64,000 bases of DNA, from the NCBI GenBank assembly GCA_016178055.1, contig JACOUC010000034.1, positions 20,621 to 84,620 on the forward strand, read 5' to 3'. Origin of the DNA: Chlamydiota bacterium. Lineage in GTDB: Bacteria; Auribacterota; JACPWU01. The notes under the pieces are model-generated. The model had not been told where the DNA came from and searched no databases. It saw nothing but the letters and a program-made list of their open reading frames with translations. Below, piece by piece: positions 6,120 to 62,828 of the stretch; the stretch's first letter is position 1, and every line of letters starts with the position of its first letter. Made by a program: the position numbers and the translations under genes.

Positions 6120-7676
6120 ATGACTCAAGAAAAAAAAGGTAAAGTCTATCTTGTCGGGGCGGGGCCAGGAGATCCAGGGCTTTTGACTGTGAAGGCACTT
6201 CATCTCATCCAAGAGGCAGACGTTCTTGTCTATGATGCTCTGGTCTCTGAGAATATTATTCGTAATGCTCCTTCCAGTGTCGAACTTATTTTTGTTGGGA
6301 AAAGAGGTGGGGAAGTTTCCGTTTCTCAAAAAGAGATTGAAGCGATTTTAATTGAAAAGACTCATCAAGGGAAAACGGTCGTTCGATTGAAAGGGGGAGA
6401 TCCCTTTATTTTTGGCCGAGGAGCTGAAGAGGCTTTATTTCTAACCCATCAAGGAATTGATTGGGAGGTGGTTCCCGGCGTATCCTCTGCAGTTGCAGTT
6501 CCAGCCTATGCAGGGATTCCCTTAACGCATCGAGATTTTACTTCATCAGTAGGTTTTTTGACAGGTCATGAAAATTCAAGAGAGGAAGAGAGTCAGATCC
6601 CTTGGTCTAAAATTTCGACTGGTTTAGGTACACTGGTTTTTTTAATGGGGGTTTCTCAACTACAACATATTGTTCACGAGCTTATTCGGAATGGACGGCC
6701 CACCTCAACTCCCTGTGCCATGGTTATGTGGGGGACGCTTCCAAGGCAAAAAACAGTTGTAGGAAATTTGTCCGATGTCGTTGGAAAGGTAAAAGAGGCT
6801 GGGTTAGAGGCGCCTTCTATTTTTATTGTTGGAGAAGTGGTTAGACTTCGGGAAAAGCTTAACTGGTTTGAAAAGGGACCTCTTTTTGGGAAAAGGATTT
6901 TAGTCACCCGCTCAAGAGAACAAGCCAGTACATTGGTTAATACTCTAGAAAAATTGGGGGCAGACCCTATTGAGTTTCCCGTGCTTCAGGTGGTTCCCCC
7001 TGAAAATTGGGCTCCGATCGACCAGGCGATTTTTCATTTAGCAAAATTTAACTGGATTGTTTTTACCAGTGTCAATGCGGTCAATATTTTTTTAGAACGT
7101 TTGAAGCTTCATTTAAAAGATATTCGAGATTTAAAAGGAATCAAAATTGCGGCCATGGGTGATGTAACGCGTGAAGCGCTTGAAAAATACAGCATCAGCG
7201 TTGATTTAACCCCTCGCGAATTTGTTTCGGAGGCCTTGCTAGAAAGTTTTAAGGAGTTAGGAAATCTTAAAAGTCAAAATTTTCTTTTACCTCGAGCCGA
7301 GGGGGCGAGAATTCTTCTTTCTGAGGGATTAAAAAAAGAAGGGGCTTGGGTGACGGATATCATTCTTTATAAAACAGTCTATCCTCCGATCCATGAAGGA
7401 TCTTCGTTCCTCCATGAAATTTTTAATTCTAAAATGGACTGGGTTACTTTTACCAGTTCCTCTACAGTCAAAAATTTTGTTGAGAGTTTGGGAAATCATT
7501 TTGAATCCTTAAAAAATCATTTTAAGGTGGCCAGCATAGGTCCCATTACTTCGGCTACAGCCCGAGGATTAGGTTTAAAGGTGGATATTGAAGCAAAGGT
7601 TCATACGATTGAAGGTTTGGTAGAGGCGTTGGTGGAGTATGAAAATCCAGAAATCAAATATCAAAAATCAAAATGA
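6120..7676 (+). CDS. cobA/hemD: uroporphyrinogen-III C-methyltransferase / uroporphyrinogen-III synthase fusion (CobA-HemD); C-terminal ..IKYQKSK tail and stop supplied by Family A repeat
   Basis: 518 aa; N-terminal VYLVGAGPGDPGLLT SAM-dependent tetrapyrrole methylase; C-terminal ~250 aa HemD-like (RILVTRSREQ..); last ~8 codons plus TGA lie inside repeat arm. Confidence 0.85.
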   Translation: MTQEKKGKVYLVGAGPGDPGLLTVKALHLIQEADVLVYDALVSENIIRNAPSSVELIFVGKRGGEVSVSQKEIEAILIEKTHQGKTVVRLKGGDPFIFGRGAEEALFLTHQGIDWEVVPGVSSAVAVPAYAGIPLTHRDFTSSVGFLTGHENSREEESQIPWSKISTGLGTLVFLMGVSQLQHIVHELIRNGRPTSTPCAMVMWGTLPRQKTVVGNLSDVVGKVKEAGLEAPSIFIVGEVVRLREKLNWFEKGPLFGKRILVTRSREQASTLVNTLEKLGADPIEFPVLQVVPPENWAPIDQAIFHLAKFNWIVFTSVNAVNIFLERLKLHLKDIRDLKGIKIAAMGDVTREALEKYSISVDLTPREFVSEALLESFKELGNLKSQNFLLPRAEGARILLSEGLKKEGAWVTDIILYKTVYPPIHEGSSFLHEIFNSKMDWVTFTSSSTVKNFVESLGNHFESLKNHFKVASIGPITSATARGLGLKVDIEAKVHTIEGLVEALVEYENPEIKYQKSK

Positions 7677-7765
7677 CAAACCAAAATTTAAAATACTTCC
7701 CTTGCAAGGGTGCTAGAATATTTTTGAATTTTGATGTGTCATTTTGCATTTTGATTTTTGGATTC
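7645..7765. repeat. Family A palindromic MITE/REP-like element (copy A1)
   Basis: Left arm aaatcaaatatcaaaaatcaaaatgacaaaccaaaatttaaaat, unique centre, right arm attttgatgtgtcattttgcattttgatttttgg (inverted). Confidence 0.8.
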
Positions 7766-8609
7766 TAAATTAATTATGAAGCTAGGTAAATTTGAAATCT
7801 ATGTTATTTCTGACGGTCTCTTTCAATTGGATGGCGGGACGATGTTTGGCATTGTTCCTAAGGTGATTTGGTCTAAATTTCTTCAAGTTGATCAAAATAA
7901 CATGGCTTTATGGGGGACGCATTGCCTTTTGGTTGTTGTGAAAGGTAAAAAGATTTTAATTGAAACGGGAATTGGATCAAAGCTTGATTCCAAGAAAAAG
8001 AAAATTTATGGTCGATCAGATGATGGAGCTTTTTCACAAAATTTAAAGAAAGCAGGTTTTAGTTTTGAGGAGATTGATTTTGTCATTCCAACCCATTTAC
8101 ATATGGATCATGCAGGAGGCTTTACTTGTTTTGAAAATGGAAAATTAAAGACGCGGTTTTCAAAGGCCCGATACTTGATTCAGAAAAAAGAATGGGAGGC
8201 TGCGATTCATCCTACGCGTTTGAGTCGGGGATCGTATTGGGAGGAGAATTTTTTGCCTGTCTTGGATCATCATCAGGTAGAATGGCTTGATGGAGATATA
8301 GAGTTGTTGCAAGGTCTCGATATTATGCTGACGGGTGCCCATAGCCAAGGCCATCAGGCGATTAAAATTTTTTCAGAAGGGAAAACACTTTTTTGTGGTG
8401 GGGATCTTATCCCGAGCCGTTGGCATGTTCGCCAAACTTTTGTTTGTGCTTATGACCTTTGCCCGATGGAGGTGAGTGAATTAAAAACCAAGTGGTTAGA
8501 GAGGGCCTATCAGGAAGATTGGATTCTTCACTGGTACCATGATCCTGAAATGCCCTTTGGAAAAGTCAATAAAGAAGGGGAGAATTTTGTAGGAGACCTC
8601 CGAAAGTGA
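7758..8609 (+). CDS. MBL-fold metallo-hydrolase
   Basis: 283 aa; HLHMDHAGG (HxHxDH) zinc-binding motif. Confidence 0.7.
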   Translation: MDSKLIMKLGKFEIYVISDGLFQLDGGTMFGIVPKVIWSKFLQVDQNNMALWGTHCLLVVVKGKKILIETGIGSKLDSKKKKIYGRSDDGAFSQNLKKAGFSFEEIDFVIPTHLHMDHAGGFTCFENGKLKTRFSKARYLIQKKEWEAAIHPTRLSRGSYWEENFLPVLDHHQVEWLDGDIELLQGLDIMLTGAHSQGHQAIKIFSEGKTLFCGGDLIPSRWHVRQTFVCAYDLCPMEVSELKTKWLERAYQEDWILHWYHDPEMPFGKVNKEGENFVGDLRK

Positions 8610-8617
8610 GGAATTGT

Positions 8618-8737
8618 ATGCCCTATCCCATTCATCGATTGAGACGATTGCGTCAAAATAAAATTTTACGAAGGAATGCTCAAGGAACTGAAGCCTATGG
8701 CTCTGGTTTCCTTGCCAGAAAAGATTCATTGGATTGA
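8618..8737 (+). pseudogene. hemB: hemB (porphobilinogen synthase) 5' remnant, about 39 codons only
   Basis: MPYPIHRLRRLRQNKILRR closely matches conserved HemB N-terminus (..QRPRRLRKSPALR..); ORF stops after 39 aa, rest of gene absent before tRNA-Asp. Confidence 0.45.
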
Positions 8738-8808
8738 AATGATTCGGAAAACGATTTTCTAACTCCGAAAGAAAAAATGACAAATGTACTTAAAGCTACA
8801 GAAAAATC

Positions 8809-8882
8809 CGGGAGTGACGGGGCTCGAACCCGCGACCTCTGCCGTGACAGGGCAGCGCTCTAGCCAATTGAGCTACACCCCC
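8809..8882 (-). tRNA. tRNA-Asp (anticodon GTC)
   Basis: Minus-strand cloverleaf: GGGGGTGTAGCTCAATTGGCTAGAGCGCTGCCCTGTCACGGCAGAGGTCGCGGGTTCGAGCCCCGTCACTCCCG; 7-bp acceptor stem, anticodon loop CTGTCAC, T-loop GGTTCGAGCC; CCA not encoded. Confidence 0.8.
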
Positions 8883-8887
8883 AACAT

Positions 8888-9016
8888 TAAATCAACATTC
8901 AAAAACCAAAATGCAAAATGACAATGTAAAATTTAAAACTTCCTTTTCGCAATAGCATTAGATCATTTTTGGATTTTGATATGTCATTTTGATGTTTGAT
9001 CTTTGATTTTTGAATT
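8888..9016. repeat. Family A palindromic element (copy A2)
   Basis: aaaaccaaaatgcaaaatgacaatgtaaaatttaaaa .. ttttggattttgatatgtcattttgatgtttgatctttgatttttgaa. Confidence 0.8.
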
Positions 9017-9018
9017 TA

Positions 9019-10254
9019 CTACATATTTTCTACAATCGCCTGACCAAATTCAGAGCATTTGAGAAGCTTAGCCCCTTCCATCTGGCGTTCTAAATCGTAG
9101 GTAACCCGCTTTTGAAGAAAGGTCTTGCGAAGTCCTTTCACCACTAAATCAGCTGCCTCTTGCCATCCCAAATATTCCAACATCATAACCCCAGAAAGAA
9201 TCAAAGAGCTAGGATTAATCTTATCCTGGCCTGCGTATTTGGGAGCTGTACCATGAGTCGCCTCAAAAACAGCAACTTCTTCTCCAATATTGGCACCCGG
9301 TCCAAGGCCCAATCCACCCACTTGGGCCAATAAGGCATCGGACATATAATCTCCATTCAAATTCGGAAGAGCAAGTACACTATAGTCAGAAGGCCTCAAC
9401 AAAACCTGTTGAAACATCGCATCAGCAATCACATCATTGATTAAGATTTTATCCTTAGGTCTTTTACCGCCAAAATTTTTTTCAATATCCTCATAGGTTA
9501 CTAATTCTCCTGAAAATTCCTGCCGAGCCAATTCATAACCCCATTCTCGAAAGGCCCCTTCCGTAAACTTCATAATGTTGCCCTTATGAACCATCGTCAC
9601 CGAAGATTTGTGGTGACGAATCGCATATTGAACGGCCATGCGAATTAAACGCTTGGAGCCCATGACGCTCATGGGTTTAACGCCAATACCAGAATCAGGA
9701 CGAATTTTACAACCCATCTCTTCATTCAGAAAACGGATCACTCTCTCTACTTCTTTGGACCCTTGCTTCCATTCAATCCCGGCATAAACATCTTCCGTAT
9801 TTTCTCGAAAAATCACCATGTCAACGAGTTCAGGTCTTTTAATCGGGGAAGGGACCCCTTCAAAATATCGAACGGGCCTCACACACGCAAAAAGATCTAA
9901 TTCTTGACGAAGCGTAACATTCAGACTACGAATTCCCCCTCCGACCGGAGTTGAAAGAGGCCCTTTAATCCCTACCCGAAATTCGCGAAGCGTCTGAAGC
10001 GTTTCTTCAGGAAGCCAATGATTCATTTTGCTCTTTGCCTTTTCACCGGCAAAAACTTCTAACCATTGAATCTCCCTTTTCCCGTCATAGGCCTTCTTCA
10101 CGGCAGCATCCCACACAGGTTGAGTTGCAGCCCAAATATCGGGTCCAACGCCATCGCCCTCAATGTAAGGAATAATCGGCTTAACGGGTACTTTTAATTT
10201 TCCTCCCTCTTTCACAATGGGAGAACCTTTTTCTAACACGTCATTTCGCATCAT
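9019..10254 (-). CDS. icd: NADP-dependent isocitrate dehydrogenase
   Basis: [44 protein letters not shown] near-identical to Icd core; true start taken at MMRNDV (the 22-codon upstream extension in the ORF track is translation of repeat A3). Confidence 0.85.
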
Positions 10255-10269
10255 CGAAACCCTCCGCCA

Positions 10270-10402
10270 AAAAATCCAAAATTCGAAAATCAAAATGCAA
10301 AATGACAAATCAAAATCCAAAAATTTCTAGTGCTATTGCAAAGGTAAAATTTTAAATTTTACAATGTCATTTTAGTTTTTGATTTTTGCATTTTGGATTT
10401 AA
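10270..10402. repeat. Family A palindromic element (copy A3) filling the entire icd/aminotransferase intergenic gap
   Basis: aaatccaaaattcgaaaatcaaaatgcaaaatgacaaatcaaaatccaaaaat .. acaatgtcattttagtttttgatttttgcattttggattt. Confidence 0.8.
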
Positions 10403-11580
10403 AAAAATTTCCTAAAGAAACTTTCAATCCTGTCCACACCCTTTTTAATATTTTCCATCGAAGTCGCATAGGAAAGACGGATATAATCATCCGCCCCAAA
10501 AGGTGCTCCTGGAACAACCGCCACATGGGCTTCTTCGAGCAAACGCTGAGAAAGTTTCGCTGAACCAATCCCATAGCGAGCCACATTCGGAAAAACATAA
10601 AACGCACCTTCAGGCTTTCGAACATGTACTTTGGGTATTTGGTTCAGCCGATCCACAATAGTGTCTCTTCTTTCTTGGAAGGCCTTAGCCATTTTCTTCA
10701 CACATTCATCCGTCCCTTTTAAAGCAGCAACCGCCGCCTTCTGAGAAATGGACGTTGGATTGGATGTGCTATGACTCTGCAAACGATTCATCGCACTTAC
10801 AATTTGACTGGGCCCGGCCAAATAACCGATACGCCAACCGGTCATGGAATAGGATTTTGAAACCCCATTCACCACCAAGGTTTGGTCCTTATTAAAATTA
10901 GCCAAACTCGTATGCTTCATTTCATCGTAAAGCAGCTCTGAATAAATTTCATCGGAAATAACATAAACTCCACCTGAAAATACAATCTTCGCAATCTCCT
11001 TTAATTCATCCTGGGTATAGGCAGATCCGGTTGGATTAGATGGGCTGTTCATGATAATGACTTTTGTCTTCCGACTCACAACCTTTTTAAGATTAACTGG
11101 ATTAATCTTAAAACCCTCTTCCTCCCGAGTTCTTAAAAAAACGGGCGTCGCATTGGCCAACCGTACCAGTTCAGGATAGGTCACCCAATAGGGAACAGGA
11201 ATAATCACCTCATCATCCTTATCGCACAAAGACAAAATCGCATTAAATAAGGAATGTTTCGCCCCGCAAGAAACAATAACGTTTTCGGGAGCATAGTCTA
11301 AATTCTGATCTTTCTTAAATTTTTCGCAAATGGCCTTCTTAAGCTCGAGCGTTCCCCCTGAAGGCGTATATTTTGTAAAACCTTCATCAATGGCCTTCTT
11401 CGCAAACTCCTTAATATGATCAGGAGTATCAAAATCCGGCTCTCCAGCCGCAAAACTCACCACATCCACACCTTGAGCTTTTAATTCCCCTGACCGAGCA
11501 TTGATCGCCAAAGTTTCAGACTCACTGATCGCCATCACGCGTTTAGCCAAAACGGTATGTGTTTTAAGAAGGGTATTCAT
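10399..11580 (-). CDS. pyridoxal-phosphate-dependent aminotransferase (aspartate/aromatic aminotransferase class I)
   Basis: 393 aa; SFAAGEPDFDTP..YTPSGG, NSPSNPTG, SKSYSMTGWRIGY (PLP lysine region). Confidence 0.8.
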   Translation of the reverse strand: MNTLLKTHTVLAKRVMAISESETLAINARSGELKAQGVDVVSFAAGEPDFDTPDHIKEFAKKAIDEGFTKYTPSGGTLELKKAICEKFKKDQNLDYAPENVIVSCGAKHSLFNAILSLCDKDDEVIIPVPYWVTYPELVRLANATPVFLRTREEEGFKINPVNLKKVVSRKTKVIIMNSPSNPTGSAYTQDELKEIAKIVFSGGVYVISDEIYSELLYDEMKHTSLANFNKDQTLVVNGVSKSYSMTGWRIGYLAGPSQIVSAMNRLQSHSTSNPTSISQKAAVAALKGTDECVKKMAKAFQERRDTIVDRLNQIPKVHVRKPEGAFYVFPNVARYGIGSAKLSQRLLEEAHVAVVPGAPFGADDYIRLSYATSMENIKKGVDRIESFFRKFF

Positions 11581-12803
11581 GACCTTACTCCCTCTAACAT
11601 TTTTCCACCTAGAAAACGCTCGACCATCGGTCGAATATCGTTTTCCGCAATTTTCACAATTTTAATCTCACGCTCAGCATTTTCGACCGAATCAGAGGCA
11701 TGGGCTGCATTCACCAAAATATTCTGTCCAAATTCTCTGCGAACCGTCGCAGGTGCAGCCTTATTCGGATCGGTTAATCCTAAAACCCCCCTGATCTTTT
11801 GAACAGCATCTTTTCCTTGATAGACCAAAGCCAAACATTTTTGTAAACCCGGTTCTTTTGTCTTTTCAGAATCCGTTATTTCTGATGGATCGGAACCCGT
11901 CATAAATTTCACAATTTTATCGAATTCATGAGAACCATGAAGCGGAGCAAGCTGGTTCGTCAAATGTTCCAAAATTTCATTTGGAATTTTAAAATCAAAT
12001 TTCTCTTGAAGCCCTGCTTGAACACGTTCTGCCACGCCCCCTTTTAATTTCTCTTGAAGAATCTTTTTAACCGGCCCATAAAATTCCATGGCTTGAGCCA
12101 CACTCATTTGAATGAGACGGGCCGAAATAATATAAAGTCCCGTCTTGGAGAACATATCAATAATATTGCCGACACGACTGGTCGGCCTTTGAAAATTTTC
12201 AGGCTTAATCAAAACCAACACCTTTTCCGGTTTCGTCCCCTTAGGATATTGGATGACATCCTCTAAAAGGCCCCCATCGGTATCAGAATATTTTGCCCAA
12301 AGCGAAAGTTGTTCGCTCGCCCCTTTTGGGTTCGGAATCACGAGAACGGCCGGTTCAAAATAACGAACCTTTCCCTCCTGATCGATCAAACAATCTCCAT
12401 AGGTATCTCGAATCGTCTCTCCACTGATCGAAAGAGAAGTAATATGCCCCACCACTTCATCGCGAATCTTTTGAACCGCATTCTCTCCGTAAAAAAGAAG
12501 CATAATCACCCTGCGCCGTTGACCCGTCTCGGGATCTGGAGAAAAATTATCAAGCACATATTGAGAAATCAAATCCCGAAGAACTTCCTTATGACGACCT
12601 ACCCGAATATCCACTTCATCCTGAACATCTTGATTTCGAAGAAGCGCTGCATATTCTTCAACCAATTTCTGACTGGGTGCAAACATCCGTACCGCCACCA
12701 ATTCCTGTTCTGCCCGAGCTAAAAGACGGGCAACGATCCCACCCGTACGAGATTTCAAAATGGTATACGGGGTCACCAAAACATATGCTAATTCTTTTGC
12801 CAT
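11577..12803 (-). CDS. tandem nucleoside-diphosphate-kinase-like domain protein (N-terminal degenerate NDK-like domain; C-terminal NDK domain with catalytic His, NAAHASDSVENAEREI)
   Basis: 408 aa; two segments with NDK fold signatures (LVTPYTILKSRTGGIVARLL.. and VLVLIKPENFQRPTSRVGNIIDMF..); only second retains N-x2-H-[GA]-SD. Confidence 0.5.
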   Translation of the reverse strand: MAKELAYVLVTPYTILKSRTGGIVARLLARAEQELVAVRMFAPSQKLVEEYAALLRNQDVQDEVDIRVGRHKEVLRDLISQYVLDNFSPDPETGQRRRVIMLLFYGENAVQKIRDEVVGHITSLSISGETIRDTYGDCLIDQEGKVRYFEPAVLVIPNPKGASEQLSLWAKYSDTDGGLLEDVIQYPKGTKPEKVLVLIKPENFQRPTSRVGNIIDMFSKTGLYIISARLIQMSVAQAMEFYGPVKKILQEKLKGGVAERVQAGLQEKFDFKIPNEILEHLTNQLAPLHGSHEFDKIVKFMTGSDPSEITDSEKTKEPGLQKCLALVYQGKDAVQKIRGVLGLTDPNKAAPATVRREFGQNILVNAAHASDSVENAEREIKIVKIAENDIRPMVERFLGGKMLEGVRS

Positions 12804-12852
12804 GAGAATAAAACTCCTTCTTAAATGGAATTGTGGAGGATTATATCAGTAA

Positions 12853-12880
12853 TGAAAATCAAAAATCAAATATCAAAAAT
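12853..12880. repeat. Family A half element (left arm only)
   Basis: aaaatcaaaaatcaaatatcaaaaatcaaaat without inverted partner. Confidence 0.5.
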
Positions 12881-13039
12881 CAAAATTGTGGAGTTTAATG
12901 AGATAGGACAAAAACTGAACAGACAAGCCTAAGGAAAAGGAGCGTACAGCCGCCAACAAAAAAGATGTGTTAATAAAACCTTACCAGCGGTTTAGTGCTG
13001 ACCGCTGTACGCATTGATTGAATGTCTTCGTTTTACCTT

Positions 13040-13183
13040 TTACTTCTTCCCAAGAATCTTAAACATCCCTGTATTACACGTTGGGCATTTTCCCTGCATC
13101 GCCCTTCGACCGTTTTTCATTTCTACTTCTTTTGCTGATACCATTTCTTTTTTTGCCTTACACTTCACACAATAGCCTTCCAT
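13040..13183 (-). CDS. small zinc-ribbon protein, DUF5679-like (47 aa), absent from supplied ORF track
   Basis: Own translation of minus strand: MEGYCVKCKAKKEMVSAKEVEMKNGRRAMQGKCPTCNTGMFKILGKK; CxxC..CxxC pattern with KNGR core typical of DUF5679. Confidence 0.5.
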   Translation of the reverse strand: MEGYCVKCKAKKEMVSAKEVEMKNGRRAMQGKCPTCNTGMFKILGKK

Positions 13184-13398
13184 GCGAACCCTCCCTTTTA
13201 ATGGTCTTCCCCTACATTTATTAAAATCCCTCTTCCTAAACTCGATCTTCTTTTTCTCAATGCTAGCTCTTTCTTCCCAATCTTGTCAAATAATAAAGCC
13301 GAGCAAAAAATAAGTTGATCTATATATCCTGATTATCTAGATTATCCGTATAGATACTCCCGATTATCCATAAACGGATTTCACAAGAATTCTTCACA

Positions 13399-14484
13399 TT
13401 AATTCCCAAATGAGATTCCGAGAGATCGACCCACCTTAATAAGGGGATGATCCAGTGGGACTTTTTTCAAATCTCCAATCGCTTGTTCGATGGGAATAGA
13501 CTCAATTTCATTTCCCTGAAGAGCAACCATTTTTCCAAAATCCCCCTTCACAATTAATTGGAGTGCCTCGTAGCCAAATCGGGTTGCCAAGATTCGGTCA
13601 AAGGCGGTTGGGGATCCCCCCCTTTGCAAATGGCCCAAAACTGTAAAACGAGATTCAAATCCTGTTTTCTTTTCTATTTTCTCTGAAAGAAGAGCTGAAA
13701 TCCCTCCCAGACGAATAGGATCAGGACTTCCCTTCACTTTCTGCTTAACAATCTGATGACCCCGAAAGGGATAAGCCCCTTCGGCAACGACCACGATGCT
13801 AAAATTTTTGCCCATTTTATGCCGCTCCTTGATCTTGCTAAAAACTTTTTTAAAATCAAATGGAATTTCAGGAATCAAAATAATATCCCCTCCTCCCGCC
13901 ATCCCTCCATAAAGAGCAATCCAACCCGCATAACGACCCATTACTTCTACAATCATCACGCGATGATGACTTTCTGCTGTGGTATGGATTCGATCCATCG
14001 CTTCTGTGACAATCGCTACAGCAGAATCAAAACCAAAAGTAAAATCCGTTCCCTTCAAATCATTGTCAATGGTTTTAGGAACGCCCACCATGTTAAAACC
14101 CATTTTCATGAGATGGGATGCAATACTTAAAGTTCCATCCCCTCCAATAGCGATGATGGCCTCCAATCCCAATTTTCTGTAATGACGGAGGGCTTGATTG
14201 GAAAGATCGCGATAAGTCAATTTCTGTTTTTTGAGAATAGGATATTTAAACGGGTTGGCTCGATTGGAAGTTCCAAGAATGGTCCCTCCTAGAGTCAAAA
14301 TTCCAGAAACATCCCAGCTTGAAAGAGGACGAAACCGATTTTCAACGAGGCCTGCATAGCCATCTTCAAAGCCATAGACCTCCATTCCAAAATCCTGAAT
14401 GGCGGTCTTTGTGATCACTCGAAGAACGGCATTCAAGCCAGGACAATCGCCTCCTCCTGTTAAAACACCGATTCTTTTTTTCAA
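13399..14484 (-). CDS. pfk: 6-phosphofructokinase
   Basis: 361 aa; GVLTGGGDCPGLNAV, IGGDGTLSIA, MGRYAGWIA motifs. Confidence 0.85.
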   Translation of the reverse strand: MKKRIGVLTGGGDCPGLNAVLRVITKTAIQDFGMEVYGFEDGYAGLVENRFRPLSSWDVSGILTLGGTILGTSNRANPFKYPILKKQKLTYRDLSNQALRHYRKLGLEAIIAIGGDGTLSIASHLMKMGFNMVGVPKTIDNDLKGTDFTFGFDSAVAIVTEAMDRIHTTAESHHRVMIVEVMGRYAGWIALYGGMAGGGDIILIPEIPFDFKKVFSKIKERHKMGKNFSIVVVAEGAYPFRGHQIVKQKVKGSPDPIRLGGISALLSEKIEKKTGFESRFTVLGHLQRGGSPTAFDRILATRFGYEALQLIVKGDFGKMVALQGNEIESIPIEQAIGDLKKVPLDHPLIKVGRSLGISFGN

Positions 14485-14514
14485 TAAAAGTTTCCCTTAA
14501 CTGTAAAAAAGGGT

Positions 14515-14925
14515 CAGTTGAGTCTGGTTCAACTGCCGACTGTCGACCGTTGACTGTAGACCCATTTTCATCCCTTCTTCTTATAGAATCCTCCCTTACC
14601 TCCCTCTTTCTTGTCGCCCATCCGCTTCTTTTCTCTCATAGACTTGAGCTTGTGCTCTCGAATCTTTTCTCGTAATTCCTCTTCTTCAAGATCTTCATCC
14701 CAAAGATCGTCGTCCATTTCAAAAAAACTCTTGGGCTCATCCTCTTCTTTACCCTTTCCTTCCCCTTCGGGTTCGACCCTTTCCTTTTCTACCAATTCCA
14801 ATGCTCCCTCCTTTCTTCGTTCTTAAGTTTAATGATGAAGATCAGTCCACAGTCTACGGTCTACAGTCCATAGAAAAAAATGTTTCCTTTAAAACTGTCG
14901 ACCGTTGACCGTCGACTGTGGACCT
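14515..14925. repeat. Family D inverted repeats (CTGTCGACCGTTGACTGTAGACC words) bracketing a small acidic ORF; cassette-like
   Basis: 14536-14558 ctgtcgaccgttgactgtagacc; 14852-14882 inverse copy cagtccacagtctacggtctacagtccatag; 14893-14922 direct copy ctgtcgaccgttgaccgtcgactgtggacc; related word at 52551-52585. Confidence 0.5.
14568..14801 (-). CDS. hypothetical small highly charged (Glu/Lys-rich) protein
   Basis: 77 aa ORF, low complexity, flanked by Family D inverted repeats; coding status uncertain. Confidence 0.25.
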   Translation of the reverse strand: MELVEKERVEPEGEGKGKEEDEPKSFFEMDDDLWDEDLEEEELREKIREHKLKSMREKKRMGDKKEGGKGGFYKKKG

Positions 14926-14941
14926 TAGACTATTTTCATAC

Positions 14942-16180
14942 TTACACTGCTTTCGCTTCCCTTTTTTTATGTTCCAAATGAAATTTTTTCATCAAATTTT
15001 TAAATCCGGAATCATCTCTTAAAGGGTCTAAGAAAGAATCCCTGGCCATTAATTCAACATTTCGAAAACCTCTCTCGAAGGCCTTACCAAACCAGCTAAG
15101 GGCCTGGTCCCTTTCCTTTTTCATTGAATAGACACAACCCATCATATAGTAAATGTATGAAAATTCAGGGTGATGATCAAGCGCCTCCTCAAGCTGGTGT
15201 AGGGCCTCGTCATATTTTCCAAGAATACAATAAGCCTCGCCCAAACCAATCTGGGCCTCCATGTAATTGGGTTTCACCGCCAAAGCCTTTTGATATTCCT
15301 CAGCAGCTTTTTCATGCTCTCCCAAATTACTATAGCAATGTCCCAAAGCCTTATGCGCCTCGGGTAGACTCGGATCCATCTCCAACGCCTTTTTTATTTG
15401 TGTGGAGGCCTGGTCCAGCCAAAATCGATCTCGAGGTTCGACCCTATGATAATGATTTGCATAGGCATCTCCTAACCCTGCATAAGCGATCGCAAAATTA
15501 GGATCCAGTTCAATCGCCTTCTGAAACATTTCAATGGCCATCCAATTTCCCTCAACGGTCATTTGAAGATGATAAAATTTTCCCCTAAGATACACTTCAT
15601 AAGCCTCGGTCGAGACCGTGGGCCTCTGAGTCAAGGTCTCTTTCGCCGACTGATTCAAATTCAAATGAGCCGCTTGAGCGATTTTTGTGGCTAATTCATT
15701 CTGAAGCCCAAAAATGTCCTCCACGGCAATTTTTCTCTCGTAGCGCTCCGCCCAAATATGAAGACCGGTGGCCACATCAATCAACTGAGCCGTCACCAAA
15801 AGAGTCTCACCCACTTTGCGAACACTCCCCTCCATCACGGCATCAACATTCAAAGCCTTCCCAACCTCTTTAATCGTAATGGGTCGCCCCTTAAAACGCT
15901 GAACATCGGTAGCCGACATCACATTTAAACCATCGATTTTAGCTAATCGGGTAATAATGTCTTCAGTCAAACCATCGCTTAAATATTCATCATCCGGACT
16001 TCCACTCATATTATTAAAGAAAAGAACAGCAATGCGGTTCTTTTGCGGTTGTCCAAAATCGAAGGTAACACGAATAGGTTCTTCTTCACGATGACGTGTT
16101 TTGATCCAAAAATAGGAAAGCGTTAAAAGGATTAATCCGACGAGAACGGATACAATAAAACGAACCGTTTTTATTTTCAC
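14942..16180 (-). CDS. TPR-repeat membrane-anchored protein with TolB-N-like periplasmic domain
   Basis: 412 aa; N-terminal TM, then AVLFFNNMSGSPDDEYLSDGLTEDIITRL..LIDVATGLHIWAERYE domain, then multiple TPR repeats. Confidence 0.65.
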   Translation of the reverse strand: MKIKTVRFIVSVLVGLILLTLSYFWIKTRHREEEPIRVTFDFGQPQKNRIAVLFFNNMSGSPDDEYLSDGLTEDIITRLAKIDGLNVMSATDVQRFKGRPITIKEVGKALNVDAVMEGSVRKVGETLLVTAQLIDVATGLHIWAERYERKIAVEDIFGLQNELATKIAQAAHLNLNQSAKETLTQRPTVSTEAYEVYLRGKFYHLQMTVEGNWMAIEMFQKAIELDPNFAIAYAGLGDAYANHYHRVEPRDRFWLDQASTQIKKALEMDPSLPEAHKALGHCYSNLGEHEKAAEEYQKALAVKPNYMEAQIGLGEAYCILGKYDEALHQLEEALDHHPEFSYIYYMMGCVYSMKKERDQALSWFGKAFERGFRNVELMARDSFLDPLRDDSGFKNLMKKFHLEHKKREAKAV

Positions 16181-16291
16181 AAGAAGGAGATTTCACCTAA
16201 ATCATGATCTAAAAGAGACCCGAATTATTAAAATAAGCGTTTGCTGAATCTTCCTCATTCATTAAAACACAAAAATGATACACAATTCAAT

Positions 16292-16609
16292 TCAATAAGC
16301 GTAGGGATTCTCATAGGGATTTCTTGCCCCTGAAGTCGATCTTCGAGCAACCAGGGGCGAACCGTCAAGAGGACACTGGCCAGGACGGTCAGAAATATAA
16401 TCGCCGTTAGGACACGAATAATAGACTTCTGAAGAATATCCACGATAGGAATCTCCTCCTTCTCGGCTTGCAAAACCTCCTTGGTAAGAATGATTTCCTC
16501 GATAGCGATTTTCAGAATAATACCCATAATCGCGGTCTGCGAAGGCCTTCATCGAAAGAAGAGAAAAAAGAACCACACCCGAGATCAACGTATATTTTTT
16601 TAATATCAT
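16292..16609 (-). CDS. hypothetical small secreted Tyr/Gly/Arg-rich protein, weak heavy-metal-binding-domain-like C-terminus
   Basis: Signal peptide MILKKYTLISGVVLFSLLSMKAFA; YYSCPNGDYISDRPGQCPLDGSPLV loosely resembles YxCPMHP..PGxCPxCGMxL HMBD pattern. Confidence 0.3.
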   Translation of the reverse strand: MILKKYTLISGVVLFSLLSMKAFADRDYGYYSENRYRGNHSYQGGFASREGGDSYRGYSSEVYYSCPNGDYISDRPGQCPLDGSPLVARRSTSGARNPYENPYAY

Positions 16610-16880
16610 ATTACACCTCAACCTCGGTATTAAATTAGCAAGGACTATACCATATTGCAAATTAAAACAACAATATGTCATATTATACTTATAATAAATG
16701 AGTTAGAATAAATCTTTCTCAATTAAATTACTCACGTTAAATTTAGCAACTCATCGTTCTGTTCTATATTAACGGAATATTGCTCTAAATTGAATGATAA
16801 AATTTGAACCTTATCTTACGCCGTATTTTAAGCTCAAAATTAAAAATGAAAGAGTGTAACATTGAGATGAAGAGGTCATT

Positions 16881-17930
16881 ATGGCAGAAACTCTTGAAAA
16901 AACACTTTCAAAATACACCATCGAAGGAGAGCTTTATAGCCTCCTCCCCGATGGAAAAATTCAATGTTATGCCTGTGGTCATTTATGCAAAATCGCCCCC
17001 GACCATCGAGGGGTGTGTCTCGTCCGATCCAATCGAGATGGAAAACTTTATGTCCCTTTTGGCTACGTGGGAGCCCTTCAGCATGATCCCATCGAGAAAA
17101 AACCTTTCTTTCACGCCCTTCCAGGCTCGTCTGCCTTAAGCTTTGGAATGCTGGGATGTGATTTTCACTGTTCGTATTGTCAAAATTGGTTCACCTCTCA
17201 GGCCTTAAGAGACCCTCAAGCAGAATCCTCACCTCATCCCATCAGTCCCCAAGAACTGGTCCGTCTGACACAAAAATATCAAGCCCCTGTCATTGCCAGC
17301 ACTTACAATGAACCCTTGATTACCAGTGAATGGGCTGCCGCCATTTTCAAAGAAGCCAAACGAGCAGGCCTTAAAACAGCCTATATCTCAAATGGGAATG
17401 CGACAGAAAGGGTGCTTGATTATCTTCGTCCCTGGGTTGATCTTTATAAAGTGGATCTAAAAAGTTTTGACGAAAATCATTATCGCCAACTCGGAGGGCA
17501 GCTCCAAACAGTCCTTAAAACGATTTCTCTTCTGAAAGAAAAAGGATTTTGGGTAGAAGTTGTCACTCTGTGTATTCCTGGATTTAATGATTCCGATCAA
17601 GAGCTCAAAAAAATAGCCCAATTTCTTGTTTCTATTTCAAAAGAAATTCCCTGGCATGTCACCGCCTTTCATCAAGACTACAGAATGCAGGATCGAAACG
17701 GAACACCTGCCTCCACCCTTTTAAGGGCCGCCCACATTGGAAAAGAAGCCGGACTTGATTTTGTCTATGCTGGGAATCTTCCGGGTCAGGTTGGAGAATT
17801 TGAGAATACACATTGCCCTCATTGTCAGACAACGATTATTGAACGTTTGGGTTTTAATGTGATTAAAAATCGACTAGTCAATGGCCAATGCCCACAATGT
17901 CAAACTAAGATTCCAGGAGTGTGGGAGTAG
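16881..17930 (+). CDS. AmmeMemoRadiSam-system radical SAM enzyme (PFL-activating-enzyme-like)
   Basis: 349 aa; N-terminal CYACGHLCKIAPDHRGVCLVRSNRDGKLY signature, radical SAM cluster GCDFHCSYCQNW, C-terminal CPHC/CPQC. Confidence 0.8.
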   Translation: MAETLEKTLSKYTIEGELYSLLPDGKIQCYACGHLCKIAPDHRGVCLVRSNRDGKLYVPFGYVGALQHDPIEKKPFFHALPGSSALSFGMLGCDFHCSYCQNWFTSQALRDPQAESSPHPISPQELVRLTQKYQAPVIASTYNEPLITSEWAAAIFKEAKRAGLKTAYISNGNATERVLDYLRPWVDLYKVDLKSFDENHYRQLGGQLQTVLKTISLLKEKGFWVEVVTLCIPGFNDSDQELKKIAQFLVSISKEIPWHVTAFHQDYRMQDRNGTPASTLLRAAHIGKEAGLDFVYAGNLPGQVGEFENTHCPHCQTTIIERLGFNVIKNRLVNGQCPQCQTKIPGVWE

Positions 17931-17936
17931 GTCGTA

Positions 17937-18060
17937 ATATCAAAAATCAAAATGCAAATATCAAAATGACAAACTAAAATTTAAATAGTTAAAACCTAAG
18001 ACGTTGCAAAATTTTGGATTTCAATCTGTCATTTTGATTCTTGTCATCATGAACTTTCAG
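17937..18060. repeat. Family A palindromic element (copy A5)
   Basis: atcaaaaatcaaaatgcaaatatcaaaatgacaaactaaaatttaaat .. ttttggatttcaatctgtcattttgattcttgtca; additional arm-like fragment at 18128-18165. Confidence 0.75.
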
Positions 18061-18214
18061 TCCACCCAAGTGGATGAAAATTGAGTTCCTCCCCTTTGGG
18101 GTACAAAGGAGGGGAATAGCCAGTAACAACGTCTCATTTTCATGACTGATTTTTGATATTTGATTTAATTTCAGTCTCGCGACAAGGGTCAACTCGTTTA
18201 TGTTATGATAAACC

Positions 18215-18634
18215 ATGATTCCTAAGAACCCGTCCAAGCTTGCCCTACTCATTCAACATGCCTCTTATGAGAAATGGCATTTGGCGGCTACGCTTGCGGC
18301 AACGACAACCGCCATGGGGGGAGAAGTTCATATTTTTCTTTCTCATGAAGCTTTAATCTCTTTTGTCCAAGAAGAAATGGATTTGGCGCCTCCCCAATTT
18401 GCAAATAAAAAAATCAATGAATGCTATCAGACTTTTTTGGAAGAAGAAAAAATTTCTAAGCCCACTAACCTTTTCAAACGAGCCAAAGAGTTAGGCCCTC
18501 TCAAATTCTATGGTTGCTCAGAATCCGTCAAACTTTTTAGACTCCAGGCAGAATATACAAAAAAATTGGACGGTGTCATCGGATACATGACCTTCCTTGA
18601 TATTGCATCTGACGGAAGATTCATTGTTATTTAG
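18215..18634 (+). CDS. hypothetical protein, possibly DsrE/DsrF-like fold
   Basis: 139 aa; KLALLIQHASYEKWHLAATLAATTTAMGGEVHIFL pattern reminiscent of DsrE/TusD family; weak. Confidence 0.3.
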   Translation: MIPKNPSKLALLIQHASYEKWHLAATLAATTTAMGGEVHIFLSHEALISFVQEEMDLAPPQFANKKINECYQTFLEEEKISKPTNLFKRAKELGPLKFYGCSESVKLFRLQAEYTKKLDGVIGYMTFLDIASDGRFIVI

Positions 18635-18698
18635 TCGCCAGTCGCCTGTCACCAGTCACCAGGGGAAAAACCAATGCATTTCATTCACAAAATATGTT

Positions 18699-19292
18699 TC
18701 ACGAAAAAAAAAGTTCTATCACTTCATTGAGATTTGATAAAACAAGATCGGCTTGTGACAGATAAGAGGCTGGTAGTGAGGTTGAAAGGGCAATACAAGT
18801 AAGTCCTGCGCTCTTCGCCGCTCGGATTCCGTAGGGAGCATTTTCAATCACTATCACTTCTTCAGAACTTAAACCCAACTTCTCCAAACCCATGAGATAG
18901 GGCTCTGGATGGCGTTCACCGTGATGAACGTCACTGGCGGTAACCACCCCTCGAAAATAATTTAACACCTCTTCTTTTAAGAAAACCCTGACTTCGGAAA
19001 GAAAAGAACCCGTTACGATTCCTAAGCGATAGCCCTGCTGATGAAATTTTTCAATGCATATCCGGGCCTCTGGAAAAAGATGGGCGGCTTCCATCTCTTT
19101 CAGCCGTTTTTCTTTATCGAGAATAAGATTTTGAATGGTATCGGGATGAGGGGTCATCCCCACCTTAACCCCTACGGAGCGCAAAGCCTCTCGCCACGCC
19201 TGATCGTGAAGATGCATGCTATCGACCAAAACCCCATCGAGATCGAATAGAATACCTTTAAATTTTCTAGGCTCAAAATTTTTCCCAGACAT
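18699..19292 (-). CDS. HAD-family hydrolase (beta-phosphoglucomutase-like)
   Basis: 197 aa; ILFDLDGVLVDS motif I, GIVTGS motif II region. Confidence 0.75.
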   Translation of the reverse strand: MSGKNFEPRKFKGILFDLDGVLVDSMHLHDQAWREALRSVGVKVGMTPHPDTIQNLILDKEKRLKEMEAAHLFPEARICIEKFHQQGYRLGIVTGSFLSEVRVFLKEEVLNYFRGVVTASDVHHGERHPEPYLMGLEKLGLSSEEVIVIENAPYGIRAAKSAGLTCIALSTSLPASYLSQADLVLSNLNEVIELFFS

Positions 19293-19465
19293 CCCCTAAA
19301 CCCTTTCACTTTCACCCACTCGATTCTCAAAAATATTTTTAAACTTATCACTGATATTGGACCCCTTACAACTGATGATTAAAAATAATTGTGGTAATTA
19401 TCCCAGGACCCGTATAGAATCTCGTCGCGTTGACAATCCTAAAATTTAACCGGAGGCAAAGGATT

Positions 19466-19744
19466 ATGAATAAAGCAGAGTTGGTAGAAACAATTGTAAA
19501 AAACAAGAATTCGGGAATTCCTTCAAAGGCAGCAGCCGAGAAGGCCCTTGATTCTGTCTTGACAGCCATTCGAACCGGCCTTAAGAAGGATAAAACCGTT
19601 CAGTTGATTGGTTTTGGAAACTTTATGGTTAAAAACCGAAAAGCCCGAAAGGGAATCAATCCTAAGACTGGAGAACAAATTCAAATCAAAGCTAGCCGCT
19701 CCGTGGGTTTCAGACCAGGGAAAGCACTCAAGGCTTCGGTTTAA
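19466..19744 (+). CDS. hup: HU-family nucleoid-associated DNA-binding protein
   Basis: MNKAELVETIVKN..GFGNFMVKNRKARKGINPKTGEQIQI; RBS ggagg upstream of MNKAEL start. Confidence 0.85.
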   Translation: MNKAELVETIVKNKNSGIPSKAAAEKALDSVLTAIRTGLKKDKTVQLIGFGNFMVKNRKARKGINPKTGEQIQIKASRSVGFRPGKALKASV

Positions 19745-19760
19745 TTTTTTGACAGAAAAA

Positions 19761-19794
19761 AAGCCTCTGACATTACGTCGGAGGCTTTTTTTTT
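19761..19794 (+). terminator. rho-independent terminator after hup
   Basis: aagcctctgacattacgtcggaggc stem-loop followed by T9 run. Confidence 0.7.
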
Positions 19795-19816
19795 GTCTTT
19801 TTTATTTTCAACTCCT

Positions 19817-20848: not shown

Positions 20849-20938
20849 AAAATATCCTCCTAATGAGTTGATCATTTTCAAGAAGCATTGTATGATAACT
20901 TGATTTTTTTAGCATGAGAGAAAATTAAGGAGATGATT

Positions 20939-21253
20939 ATGGAAAACACCGTGCAGCATCAAAGTTTAGAATTGAATGACGATTTACTGAAAGAAATTTT
21001 TGCACTCTCTACAGCAAGTACAGACTATGAGGTCAATCTTGCGTACGATGCGAAAAACGAAGATTTTTGGCAAAAAGAAAATCTGAACGAAGTTTATAAA
21101 TTGGGCCAACAAAAAAGGGAATATGCCTTGGACTCCCTTAGGGGTGTCTTAAGCTGGCTTAACCGCCACAATTATGAAATTCATCAGGAAGGACAAAAGG
21201 TGGATCTTTCAAACATTTTGAATACACTCGTGCAGAAGGAAGAAGAGGAATAA
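20939..21253 (+). CDS. hypothetical protein
   Basis: 104 aa ORF with RBS aaggag; no recognisable motif. Confidence 0.3.
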   Translation: MENTVQHQSLELNDDLLKEIFALSTASTDYEVNLAYDAKNEDFWQKENLNEVYKLGQQKREYALDSLRGVLSWLNRHNYEIHQEGQKVDLSNILNTLVQKEEEE

Positions 21254-21262
21254 ATCAATTCC

Positions 21263-22534: not shown

Positions 22535-22544
22535 TGATGGAATT

Positions 22545-22672: not shown

Positions 22673-22679
22673 TAAGAAA

Positions 22680-53699: not shown

Positions 53700-53777
53700 T
53701 AGTTGTGAGTGGTAAGTGGTGAGTTGTGAGTGAAACAGTATCCACATTTCATAATGTTCACTACGATAGCATATCCA

Positions 53778-59689: not shown

Positions 59690-59870
59690 CTCTTTGAGCT
59701 TTGAACCTTCGACTTGATTTCCTTCTTTCTCTTCTAGCTTCCAGCCTCTAGCGTCTAGCTCGCTTTCTGTTTTTGCCTCGAGCTCCTGCCCCGTCGGATG
59801 ACTTGGGGTCGAGCTTCCAGCCTCGAGCAGTCTTTTTTTGAACTTTGAACCATCTCTAAGGCAGCACCCT
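59690..59870. repeat. composite Family C/Family B repeat block between batB and batA
   Basis: ctttgagctttgaaccttcgactt..tctagcttccagcctctagcgtctagctc (28-mer identical to 2009-2036)..cctcgagctcc..ggtcgagcttccagcctcgagc..gaactttgaacc. Confidence 0.6.
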
Positions 59871-61773: not shown

Positions 61774-61776
61774 AGA

Positions 61777-62679
61777 TCACCTGGCCCTTCTTTCTCTCAT
61801 TTTAAATAATTGATTGAGAGATTTGGCATAAGAGGTCTGCGTCTCGATTCTGGCATGATCCACTCGATTGGATTGAAAAAGTTTTTTAAGAGATTGACTC
61901 CTCTTTTTTTTCTCGTCCTCTATCAAAAGGGAAACAGCCTTTGAATCAGTATTGACAAGACACATCTGGTCTGTCTCACGATCTTCAAGCCTTAAAAGGC
62001 CTATGGATGGTATTTTCTCCTCATGTTGATCAAAAAGCTCTAAAGCAATTAAATCATGTTTTTTAGCTGTAATCCTCAAAGGCTTCTCAAAGGAGGTATC
62101 TAAATAATCCGAAATGAGAAAAACGACTGAACGTTTCGGTAAAACCTTTGCGACATACTCTAAAGCCTTCGCAATATTTGTTTTTTTCCCTTTGGGTTTA
62201 TAGAAAAGAATCTCTCGAATCATCCGCATTCCGTAACGCTTATTCCTTTTAGGCGGAAGATATTTCTCAATCTGATCGGTAAAGATCAGAAGGCCCACAC
62301 GGTCATTATTGCGAATGGCTGAAAAAGCAATGAGTGCCGCAAGCTCGGCGGCCACCTCACTTTTCAAACGATCCCCACTCCCAAAATTCTGAGAACCGCT
62401 CAAATCAACCATCAATAAAACATTCAGCTGACGCTCCTCCATAAACTTTTTAACATAAGGATGCCCCATCCTTGCCGTCACATTCCAATCAATCGATCGA
62501 ATATCGTCTCCAGGGATATATTCTCTCACCTCTGAAAATTCAATCCCCTGTCCTTTAAAAACACTATGATATTCACCCGAAAAAACCTCATTGACCAAAC
62601 GCCGCGTCTTAATTTCTAAGCGCTTAACTTTTTTAAGAATATCGATAGGTTCTGGATTCATCGTTTTCACCATAAACAT
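61777..62679 (-). CDS. DUF58 domain protein (MoxR partner)
   Basis: 300 aa; DIRSIDWNVTAR and VWA-like region. Confidence 0.8.
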   Translation of the reverse strand: MFMVKTMNPEPIDILKKVKRLEIKTRRLVNEVFSGEYHSVFKGQGIEFSEVREYIPGDDIRSIDWNVTARMGHPYVKKFMEERQLNVLLMVDLSGSQNFGSGDRLKSEVAAELAALIAFSAIRNNDRVGLLIFTDQIEKYLPPKRNKRYGMRMIREILFYKPKGKKTNIAKALEYVAKVLPKRSVVFLISDYLDTSFEKPLRITAKKHDLIALELFDQHEEKIPSIGLLRLEDRETDQMCLVNTDSKAVSLLIEDEKKKRSQSLKKLFQSNRVDHARIETQTSYAKSLNQLFKMRERRAR

Positions 62680-62700
62680 TTATTCACTCGCATGAATTAA

Positions 62701-62828
62701 TATCAAAAATCAAAAATCAAACATCAAAATGACAGATCAAAATTCAAAATGGCTCACAAGTTAGGATATAGAGATGATTTTTACATTTTGACTTGTCATT
62801 TTGATTTTTGCATTTTGAATTTTAAATT
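62701..62828. repeat. Family A palindromic element (copy A11) between moxR and DUF58 genes
   Basis: tatcaaaaatcaaaaatcaaacatcaaaatgacagatcaaaattcaaaat .. ttttgacttgtcattttgatttttgcattttgaatttt. Confidence 0.8.

Follow-up and report, generated by a model that had tools for sequence, protein, structure and literature searches.

Palindromic heptamer-array elements between bacterial genes: candidate gene-less forms of an intervening-sequence-like PF05635 cassette

A stretch of 64,000 nucleotides from a Chlamydiota bacterium (contig JACOUC010000034.1 of assembly GCA_016178055.1), referred to below as the window, carries a dispersed family of imperfect palindromes at its gene boundaries, which we call Family A. 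The window has ~41% G+C and no rRNA in its 64 kb, and Pfam matches identify cobA-hemD, icd, der, dgt, lnt, prfB, secA, rlmN, and a MoxR/DUF58 pair among its genes; the closest homologue of its Der, at 61% identity, is annotated as belonging to a Chlamydiae bacterium metagenome-assembled genome (MAG). An inverted-repeat search returned eight palindromes with arms of 31–58 nt, 72–84% complementary and spaced by 15–29 nt, and the arm word AAATCAAAAATCAAAATGACA, with up to three mismatches, matches 18 times versus 0.07 expected from shuffles. An arm profile built from fetched loci only, leaving out the window sequence but including other contigs of the chlamydial assembly JACPWU01, finds exactly 19 arms in the 64 kb: eight pairs, three solo arms, and no others. 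The eight full and three partial copies claimed by an earlier, sequence-only reading of this DNA are present where it had placed them, well above chance.

Alignment of the copies, position statistics over 73 elements, and Tandem Repeats Finder give a common layout, in which an arm is followed by a centre of 16–35 nt (16–65 nt in the few copies that contain an insert) and a mirror arm. Each arm comprises about four outer tandem heptamers of the form YAAAAWK, one invariant unit, CAAAATGACA, and two to three inner heptamers, with an invariant 10-nt box present in both arms. Tandem Repeats Finder reports period 7 in every arm, with 4–7.6 copies and 64–91% matches, the units being degenerate, not perfect; the A-tract of each unit is 92–99% conserved across phyla, and its last two to three bases are near random. 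The arms had been described as inverted and built from A/T-rich words; the inversion stands, but the arms are more than simple words, each being a heptamer array with one invariant unit.

All copies in the window sit between protein or tRNA genes. The copy at 7641–7775 fills the whole gap between cobA-hemD and a metallo-beta-lactamase-fold gene (ATG at 7776), and is supported by the profile (E 1e-15 for both arms), the inverted repeat, and an RNA fold of −37.9 kcal/mol (z −5.6). Further full copies lie at 8886–9019, between tRNA-Asp (8808–8883, − strand) and the icd stop (9019); at 10270–10402, between the icd start (~10254, GGAGG upstream) and the stop of a class I/II aminotransferase gene (10399); at 22544–22675, between the rlmD-like start (22534) and the rlmN stop (22680); at 30488–30619, between the dgt start (30474, AGAGG upstream) and der; at 40972–41104, between prfB and lnt; and at 62697–62831, between the DUF58 start (62679) and the stop of the MoxR AAA ATPase gene (62835). 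The remaining one, at 17935–18043, lies 5 nt past the stop of a radical-SAM gene (17930) and has a degenerate or truncated right outer arm, the right arm corresponding to profile positions 24–57 only. As had been proposed, the elements nearly fill their intergenic gaps, with this copy as the exception: seven of the eight do so, whereas 17935–18043 takes up ~40% of a gap of 284 nt. A GCAA core, reported as frequent, is seen in five of the eight centres.

The partial copies are a solo outer arm at 12853–12886 (+ strand), consisting of heptamers only (profile positions 3–36) and lying upstream of an NDK-domain gene; a solo outer arm at 21266–21300 (− strand), through which the rlmD-like gene (21263–22534, − strand) is translated; and a solo box with inner arm at 45991–46029 (+ strand, profile positions 19–57), which abuts the stop of an ATPase_2/DUF234 gene (46030). 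Two more inverted-repeat pairs, 45759–45783/45908–45932 and 45906–45927/46038–46059, surround the last of these. Near the copy at 40972–41104, the prfB open reading frame (ORF) call (39795–40814, − strand) has a GTG start with the PCRF domain beginning at residue 2, which is suggestive of the programmed +1 frameshift common in this gene, the N-terminal portion being encoded upstream in another frame.

Several genes end inside the elements with similar tails, as the sequence-only reading had observed. The last 11 codons of cobA-hemD (7641–7676, + strand; ENPEIKYQKSK and the stop) are encoded by the element, the stop at 7674–7676 being the TGA of the box, and the HEM4 domain ends at residue 502 of 518, complete by Pfam 16 residues before the C-terminus. 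The der gene ends in ..KSKIKNQKSK and a stop (30584–30619, − strand), with ~11 codons in the right arm and the box TGA at 30584–30586, and lnt ends in ..SKIKIQKSK and a stop (41069–41104, − strand), with ~11 codons in the arm and the box TGA at 41069–41071; rlmD ends inside the partial copy at 21266–21300. Wherever a copy overlaps a gene end, its A-rich arm is translated, as a K/Q/S/I-rich sequence, until the CAAAATGACA unit supplies a TGA. The ORF calls for icd and dgt likewise show the spurious FCILIF.FWIF extension at their N-termini, that of icd coming from the copy at 10270–10402. Eleven Der homologues, including the eight closest (56–61% identity), end 3–10 residues earlier with unrelated tails, and a QKSK or KSK C-terminus is found in none of 150 Lnt representatives; because these orthologues lack the tails, the idea that the element donates them stands.

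The proposed association with stop codons is also real. Among 80 gene 3′ ends that face an element, 25 have their stop within 9 nt at the outer arm edge (19 of these TAA), six stop at the box TGA, and 40 stop inside the element overall; TA/TAA is enriched at both edges, and is found at the outer edge of 47% of arms. A three-frame stop cassette was considered and rejected: a stop is met within the copies in all 48 frame and direction combinations, but the same holds for 98.6% of shuffled copies, and universal stopping is trivial because the elements are A/T-rich.

RNA folding of each window copy, which had been suggested as a check, gives a potential long interrupted hairpin in all cases, at −24 to −40 kcal/mol (z −3.8 to −6.6). 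The two arms show no compensatory change: with 55 elements aligned without gaps, 75.7% of cells are paired versus 76.6 ± 0.5% when the right arms are shuffled (483 of 500 shuffles were at least equal), and a second comparison, of pairing within elements and between elements, gives 0.650 versus 0.650. The palindrome thus belongs to the consensus, in which one motif array stands on both strands, and is not kept copy by copy; a hairpin under structural selection is not supported, pairing within an element being no better than pairing between elements. In Rfam searches at gathering and permissive thresholds, tRNA-Asp alone passes gathering, and the sub-threshold matches are plant microRNA hairpins. 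Heptamer order and number differ even between near-identical copies, as in two Portnoybacteria loci (L039 and L044) with identical centres and two adjacent heptamers swapped, and some of the variation among arms seems to come from whole heptamers being shuffled.

A pattern scan (CAAAATGACA-N50–70-TGTCATTTTG, one genome per species) matched at least 120 loci, about two thirds of which carry the same heptamer arms outside the pattern. Family A is present at a minimum of 75 loci in MAGs of many phyla, with host G+C of 34–62% and element G+C of 12–42%, and the arm profile finds 90 full copies in 78 sources. The profile is highly specific: ~40 pattern-matching loci that are not members (~316 kb) gave one solo arm match only (L041). 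By record titles, the hosts include Patescibacteria (Moran-, Portnoy-, Falkow-, Zambryski-, and Saccharibacteria, and Microgenomates), Planctomycetota (Pirellulales, a Gimesia MAG, Phycisphaerae on Mb-scale contigs, and Anaerohalosphaeraceae), Omnitrophota, Dehalococcoidia (Chloroflexota), Nitrospirota, Saprospiraceae, the chlamydial MAG JACPWU01, and others. Viral contigs of IMG/VR gave six pattern matches and no family members, and a search of the literature on repeat sequences, PF05635, and MITEs (miniature inverted-repeat transposable elements) in Chlamydiae, the candidate phyla radiation (CPR), and the Planctomycetes–Verrucomicrobia–Chlamydiae phyla returned no account of Family A.

Within JACPWU01, copies lie on several contigs (loci L001, L015, L019, L046, and L119). 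Another of its contigs (L131; JACPWU010000022.1) has a der gene 61% identical to that of the window, with der-dgt synteny kept and no Family A copy; an AGTCCAT-heptamer palindrome (L131, 5315–5377) lies exactly at its der|dgt junction and supplies the der stop, so that this der ends in ..SSP*. Two chlamydial populations may be combined in the JACPWU01 bin; alternatively, the window may belong to a sister assembly.

Genes flanking the copies are arranged in tandem in 63 cases, convergently in nine, and divergently in three (background 342, 46, and 46), and a gene 3′ end lies on at least one side of 96% of copies. Copies also occur inside operons, at rplK|rplA (L11|L1), upstream of rplB (L2), at atpH|atpA, and at leuC|leuD. 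A test for polarity relative to flanking genes singled out only two adjacent inner-arm positions (p ~0.002), which is not robust after multiple testing, and arms bearing an ATG are equally common upstream and downstream of genes.

A Pirellulales contig provides the link to a gene, since there the Family A arms enclose 340 nt that encode a 123-aa protein of the four-helix-bundle (FHB) family PF05635 (E 2e-19), named in Pfam ‘23S rRNA intervening-sequence protein’, with the ATG in the heptamer adjoining the box and the stop abutting the right arm. Its relatives number at least 1727, of which the best 120 share 70% identity or more, are nearly all 123 aa long, and begin MQ(N/S)DK(E/S)KFK. In five independent contexts (L069; L121–130 and L133–142, at leuC|FHB|leuD; L143; L144), the arm profile finds correctly oriented arms on either side of a PF05635 gene, at E 1e-5 to 9e-17, and the contexts fetched include leuC|FHB|leuD in Sedimentisphaerales, a Calditrichota contig, and leuB|FHB|GTPase. 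Five window arms match the FHB flanks column by column (alignments A3 and A4), over the upstream region with the first nine codons (MQNDKSKFK) and over the stop codon with the 3′ flank; one example is CAAAATGCAAAATGACGATCCAAAATTCAAA in the window and CAAAATGCAAAATGACAAATCAAAATTCAAA in L144. A half-deleted intermediate, in a Gimesia MAG (L103), has arms enclosing only 22 N-terminal and 25 C-terminal FHB codons. Because the arms are homologous to the FHB flanks and such an intermediate exists, we take the window copies as ORF-less forms of the FHB cassette. No convincing FHB coding remnant was seen by eye in the window centres.

Family A arms surround non-coding centres of 200 nt and 120 nt at L031 (5625–5930) and L120 (2893–3121), so the loop can hold cargo other than an FHB gene. 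In two Nitrospirota MAGs (L059, 891–1026; L072, 1987–2122), a small G+C-rich hairpin, ACGACCCACTTCGTGGGTACCCC, takes the place of the inner part of one arm, which is a nested insertion of another short palindrome, and in a Saccharibacteria locus (L018, 1640–2210) a tRNA gene and the adjoining half element are duplicated in tandem.

The long homologues resemble the intervening sequences (IVSs) of 23S rRNA in Coxiella burnetii and Leptospira, as both consist of an inverted-repeat stem around a PF05635 ORF preceded by heptamers. The Coxiella burnetii IVS has terminal inverted repeats with a 28-bp stem and two to three tandem GACAGAT heptamers, their number varying among strains, directly upstream of the S23p (PF05635) ORF, which shows decay; RNase III cuts where the first heptamer begins (Warrier et al. 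2016, PMC4990558). The Coxiella heptamer GACAGAT resembles GACA(A/G)AT of the Family A box, and ORF decay, internal deletions, and a sporadic distribution suggestive of horizontal spread are common to both. IVSs differ in lying within helices 9, 25, or 45 of 23S rRNA, whereas the window copies lie between protein or tRNA genes, and in carrying the ORF, whereas the window copies have the stem and heptamers alone; excision by RNase III, shown for IVSs, is for Family A an inference. We found no description of an intergenic, multi-copy, cross-phylum ORF-less form in the literature searched.

We hold, with a little more confidence than doubt, that Family A is the ORF-less form of an IVS-like, probably selfish PF05635 cassette that is co-transcribed with its neighbours and does not act as a terminator. 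Under this model, the element would be transcribed together with the adjoining genes, its arms would fold into a long imperfect A–U stem, and RNase III would cut that stem as in the Coxiella IVS, making the element a tolerated, essentially selfish intervening sequence of operon transcripts. It would spread with a preference for TA/TAA, and stop codons would therefore be frequent insertion points, with the donation of stops and tails as a by-product.

The sequence-only reading had instead suggested a bidirectional terminator hairpin, and an intrinsic terminator acting in both directions would suit the long hairpin potential on both strands, the U-rich 3′ arm, and the gene 3′ ends that nearly all copies face. 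However, a terminator scan of 7000–24000 finds no terminator-like site at any copy, and canonical promoter and terminator signals at the copies are not above background. The genome's own form is seen at 19751–19797, a canonical bidirectional terminator with a G+C-rich stem and T9 (GACAGAAAAAAAGCCTCTGAC..GTCGGAGGCTTTTTTTTTGTC), whereas the copies have no G+C-rich stem followed by a T run. Homologues lie inside ribosomal-protein, ATP synthase, and leuCD operons (L11|L1, upstream of L2, atpH|atpA, and leuC|leuD), which need read-through; FHB-bearing forms also depend on read-through from the upstream genes, because they are always co-oriented with them. We consider a terminator function very improbable.

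Evidence for dispersal comes from copies at unrelated loci, from solo, truncated, and nested copies, and from genomes (Portnoybacteria, Phycisphaerae, and in part the JACPWU01 MAG) whose copies share centres in either orientation. The clearest site is the atpH|atpA junction, which is filled in two genomes (L116 and L009) and empty in a third (L151), the empty-site genome being the closer to L116 by AtpA identity (88% versus 85% for L009). The empty site reads ..TAA ATTTTGAATTT ATG, and the filled site has the TAA, an insert beginning AAATTAAAAATGC and ending GATTTT TAA, and then ATTTTGAATT and the ATG, such that the insertion lies exactly at the TAA stop. Among the 80 atpA relatives fetched, not one carries a full element at this junction, two of them having weak, partial outer-arm matches only.

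These features raise the alternative of an ordinary MITE, moved in trans by a DDE transposase of the IS630/Tc1 or IS5/Harbinger type with a TA/TAA (TTAA) target, the FHB gene being a passenger. The inverted arms of ~55 nt, which would serve as terminal inverted repeats, the small size, the many copies, and the truncated and nested forms are those of a MITE, and the TA/TAA at the outer edge of 47% of arms occurs on both sides; the pair ..TAA|ATTTTGAATT.. and ..TAA[element]TAA ATTTTGAATT.. is compatible with a TA, TAA, or TTAA duplication. Yet no transposase gene lies between or beside the arms in ~0.9 Mb of copy-bearing loci, a blind search for target-site duplications is negative (below), and copies within one genome are highly divergent. 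Every long form with the same ends encodes the FHB ORF alone, with its start and first nine codons within the arm, and this architecture recurs, with unrelated heptamers, in other FHB subfamilies, which a passenger model does not predict. We think a MITE of this kind unlikely. Of the MITE- or REP-like character proposed earlier (REP, repetitive extragenic palindrome), the dispersed repeat family stands; no transposase-bearing parent was found in the loci examined, the blind search gave no consistent target-site duplication, and a REP signature is absent.

Several observations weigh against the selfish-cassette reading we favour. The blind search, for direct repeats of 2–8 nt at symmetric offsets, found no target-site duplication, and arm identity within a genome (0.72) is only slightly higher than that between genomes (0.67), which is not what a mobile element with recent activity would show. 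Arms of L009 and L116 are ~95% identical, with flanking atpH/atpA DNA ~72% identical and unrelated centres, which fits either purifying selection or recent independent insertion, and the conserved A-tracts beside near-random positions could reflect function instead of selfish drift. MAG taxonomy labels can err, as for L009, which is labelled Bdellovibrionales and has a Moranbacteria-like AtpA. A PF05635 gene is found neither in the window nor in the five other JACPWU01 stretches seen, so that a trans-acting partner in this host is putative, and RNase III cutting of Family A copies would follow by analogy with the IVS.

The main rival draws in part on the same observations. It holds that Family A is a host-beneficial intercistronic RNA module, with a stem-loop kept for mRNA processing or stability, or an A/U-rich start region free of a Shine-Dalgarno sequence, and we regard it as possible but improbable. 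In Patescibacteria, copies end 1–10 nt before the ATG of rplB, rplA, rplK, gap, metG, and atpA with no Shine-Dalgarno sequence between, and divergent contexts, which offer the promoter side only, are rare (3 of 75 versus 10.6% in the background); the similarity of the L009 and L116 arms and the A-tract conservation across phyla also suit a host function. On the other hand, genes downstream of the window copies retain their own GGAGG or AGAGG, the arms show no compensatory change, and there is essentially no orientation preference relative to genes. At atpH|atpA, the closest relative, L151, has an empty site and none of the 80 atpA relatives carries a full element, and between two Sedimentisphaerales the right arm is 80% identical versus 76–82% at synonymous sites, the neutral rate.

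Other repeat families share some of these properties. The enterobacterial repetitive intergenic consensus (ERIC, or intergenic repeat unit, IRU) and Correia (Neisseria miniature insertion sequence, NEMIS) elements, reviewed by De Gregorio et al. and by Delihas, are MITE-like palindromes of 100–160 bp, intergenic within transcription units, in both orientations, with TA ends; they occasionally overlap gene ends, and their transcript hairpins are processed by RNases (RNase III for Correia). They are limited to one genus or family, their copies are more than 80–90% alike, and their arms are not heptamer arrays; we know of no link between them and a PF05635 gene. Family A is similar in size and in being an imperfect palindrome, but crosses phyla with copies ~70% alike. 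The Rickettsia palindromic elements of Ogata et al. (2000) are said to be 100–150 bp long, in an obligate intracellular lineage, and inserted in-frame inside ORFs that are read through; both they and Family A are palindromic and enter coding sequence, but Family A replaces only the last ~10 codons and the stop, and the sequences are unrelated. REP sequences and bacterial interspersed mosaic elements, with their REP-associated tyrosine transposases, are extragenic palindromes at gene ends, as is Family A, but REPs are 20–40 nt with a GTAG/CGTC head, whereas Family A is ~130 bp with repetitive arms and no such head in any copy. A cyanobacterial origin was considered for the window and dropped: HIP1 occurs in it once, and both the exact database match of its Der and the closest Der homologue carry a Chlamydiae annotation.

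The short tandemly repeated repetitive (STRR) sequences of cyanobacteria, reportedly described by Mazel et al. in 1990, are tandem 7-nt units in intergenic DNA. Like these STRRs and the heptameric simple sequence repeats (SSRs), Family A has head-to-tail 7-nt units, intergenic, often in operons, and sometimes in inverted pairs; descriptions of STRRs and SSRs present simple repeats that have no conserved box, centre, or associated gene, whereas Family A has degenerate units in a defined palindrome. Intergenic DNA of bacteria holds an excess of heptameric repeats, which is strong in Xanthomonas and Nostoc, with ‘no detailed literature’ on the cause and no gene linked to them (Rehm et al. 2015, PMC4692102). 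Family A is neither a canonical terminator nor a classical MITE, but probably the gene-less form of an IVS-like cassette.

Heptamer arrays also frame PF05635 genes of other subfamilies. In 13 FHB contexts, period-7 arrays lie within 180 nt of 11 starts and 12 stops (23 of 26 flanks), where about one array would be expected in 26 such intervals (background density 0.11–0.30 per kb); the repeat unit is lineage-specific, and one context uses octamers. Bacteroides relatives of PDB 2RLD, in araD|FHB|araA and aminotransferase|FHB|DAHP synthase, have four AATTGAC units mirrored downstream over 31 nt with 94–97% complementarity, a Portnoybacteria FHB gene has ten ATAAACT units and an inverted partner, and another CPR FHB gene has AGTGACT-type units. 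On plasmids, the units are TCAGGAG (7.6 copies) and CTCCTGA in Nostoc punctiforme pNPUN01, TCAGAAT and ATTCTGA in Trichormus variabilis ATCC 29413 plasmid C, CTTCTGC in Nostoc PCC 7120 alpha and gamma, and TTAGCTG and AGCTAAA in Calothrix PCC 7716; the octamers, AGGAGATA and ATCTCCTA, belong to a plasmid of Picosynechococcus PCC 7003 (L246), where the gene sits in a type III-B CRISPR operon, with cas10/cmr2 on one side and cmr3 on the other. Searching plasmids by tblastn returned PF05635 genes mostly from Nostocales, and in N. punctiforme an ORF-less palindrome of ~130 bp, made of its own heptamer, lies 500 bp from the FHB cassette. From these sequences, framing by heptamer arrays looks like a general trait of PF05635 genes that had gone unnoticed, and no account of such a link was found in the literature searched. 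The solved FHB relatives are two uncharacterised structural-genomics entries of five chains each, and Avd, a related protein of diversity-generating retroelements, is a pentamer.

The window itself contains nine other period-7 arrays versus 1.9 expected under a Markov model, nearly all at gene boundaries. They lie at 2009–2062, 14532–14561, 18633–18662, 29268–29286, 32593–32635, 42594–42685, 53701–53732, and 59733–59759, with units TCTAGCT, ACTGTCG, AGTCACC, TAAATAG, TTGAACT, a GTTTAAG/TTTAAAC inverted pair, AGTGGTG, and TCTAGCC. A second type of palindrome, with GTCCACA/GTCTACG heptamers, occurs at 14845–14923.

This excess of arrays would also be expected if heptamer arrays were not mobile and arose in place by polymerase slippage, an idea published for the heptameric SSR excess, with the likeness among copies being convergent; the swapped heptamers between the identical centres of L039 and L044 and the heptamer number that varies among Coxiella strains (PMC4990558) point the same way. 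Slippage does not account for an invariant 10-nt box in both arms, for homologous centres among copies of one genome, for base-by-base alignment over the full length across phyla and to the FHB flanks, or for presence and absence at a single site, atpH|atpA, and we find it the least credible of the explanations weighed here.

A broader proposal, which we put forward tentatively and with more doubt than belief, is a joint two-part system in which each PF05635 subfamily pairs its protein with a cognate heptamer frame of one unit, existing in gene-bearing, rRNA-IVS, and ORF-less forms; the protein would recognise four to five arm heptamers, as RNA or DNA, for processing or spread. If this were true, it would account for much of the intergenic heptamer excess, including the cyanobacterial STRRs and the SSRs of Xanthomonas and Nostoc. 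The same architecture is present in Bacteroides thetaiotaomicron-like genomes, N. punctiforme, Nostoc PCC 7120, and T. variabilis, and is therefore testable in tractable strains. For annotation, Family A is a hazard in many phyla, giving false N-terminal extensions, short lysine-rich C-terminal tails, and donated stops in housekeeping genes. For biology, it joins puzzles that had stood apart: palindromes in uncultivated bacteria, orphan PF05635 genes, the IVSs of rRNA, and the excess of 7-nt repeats between genes.

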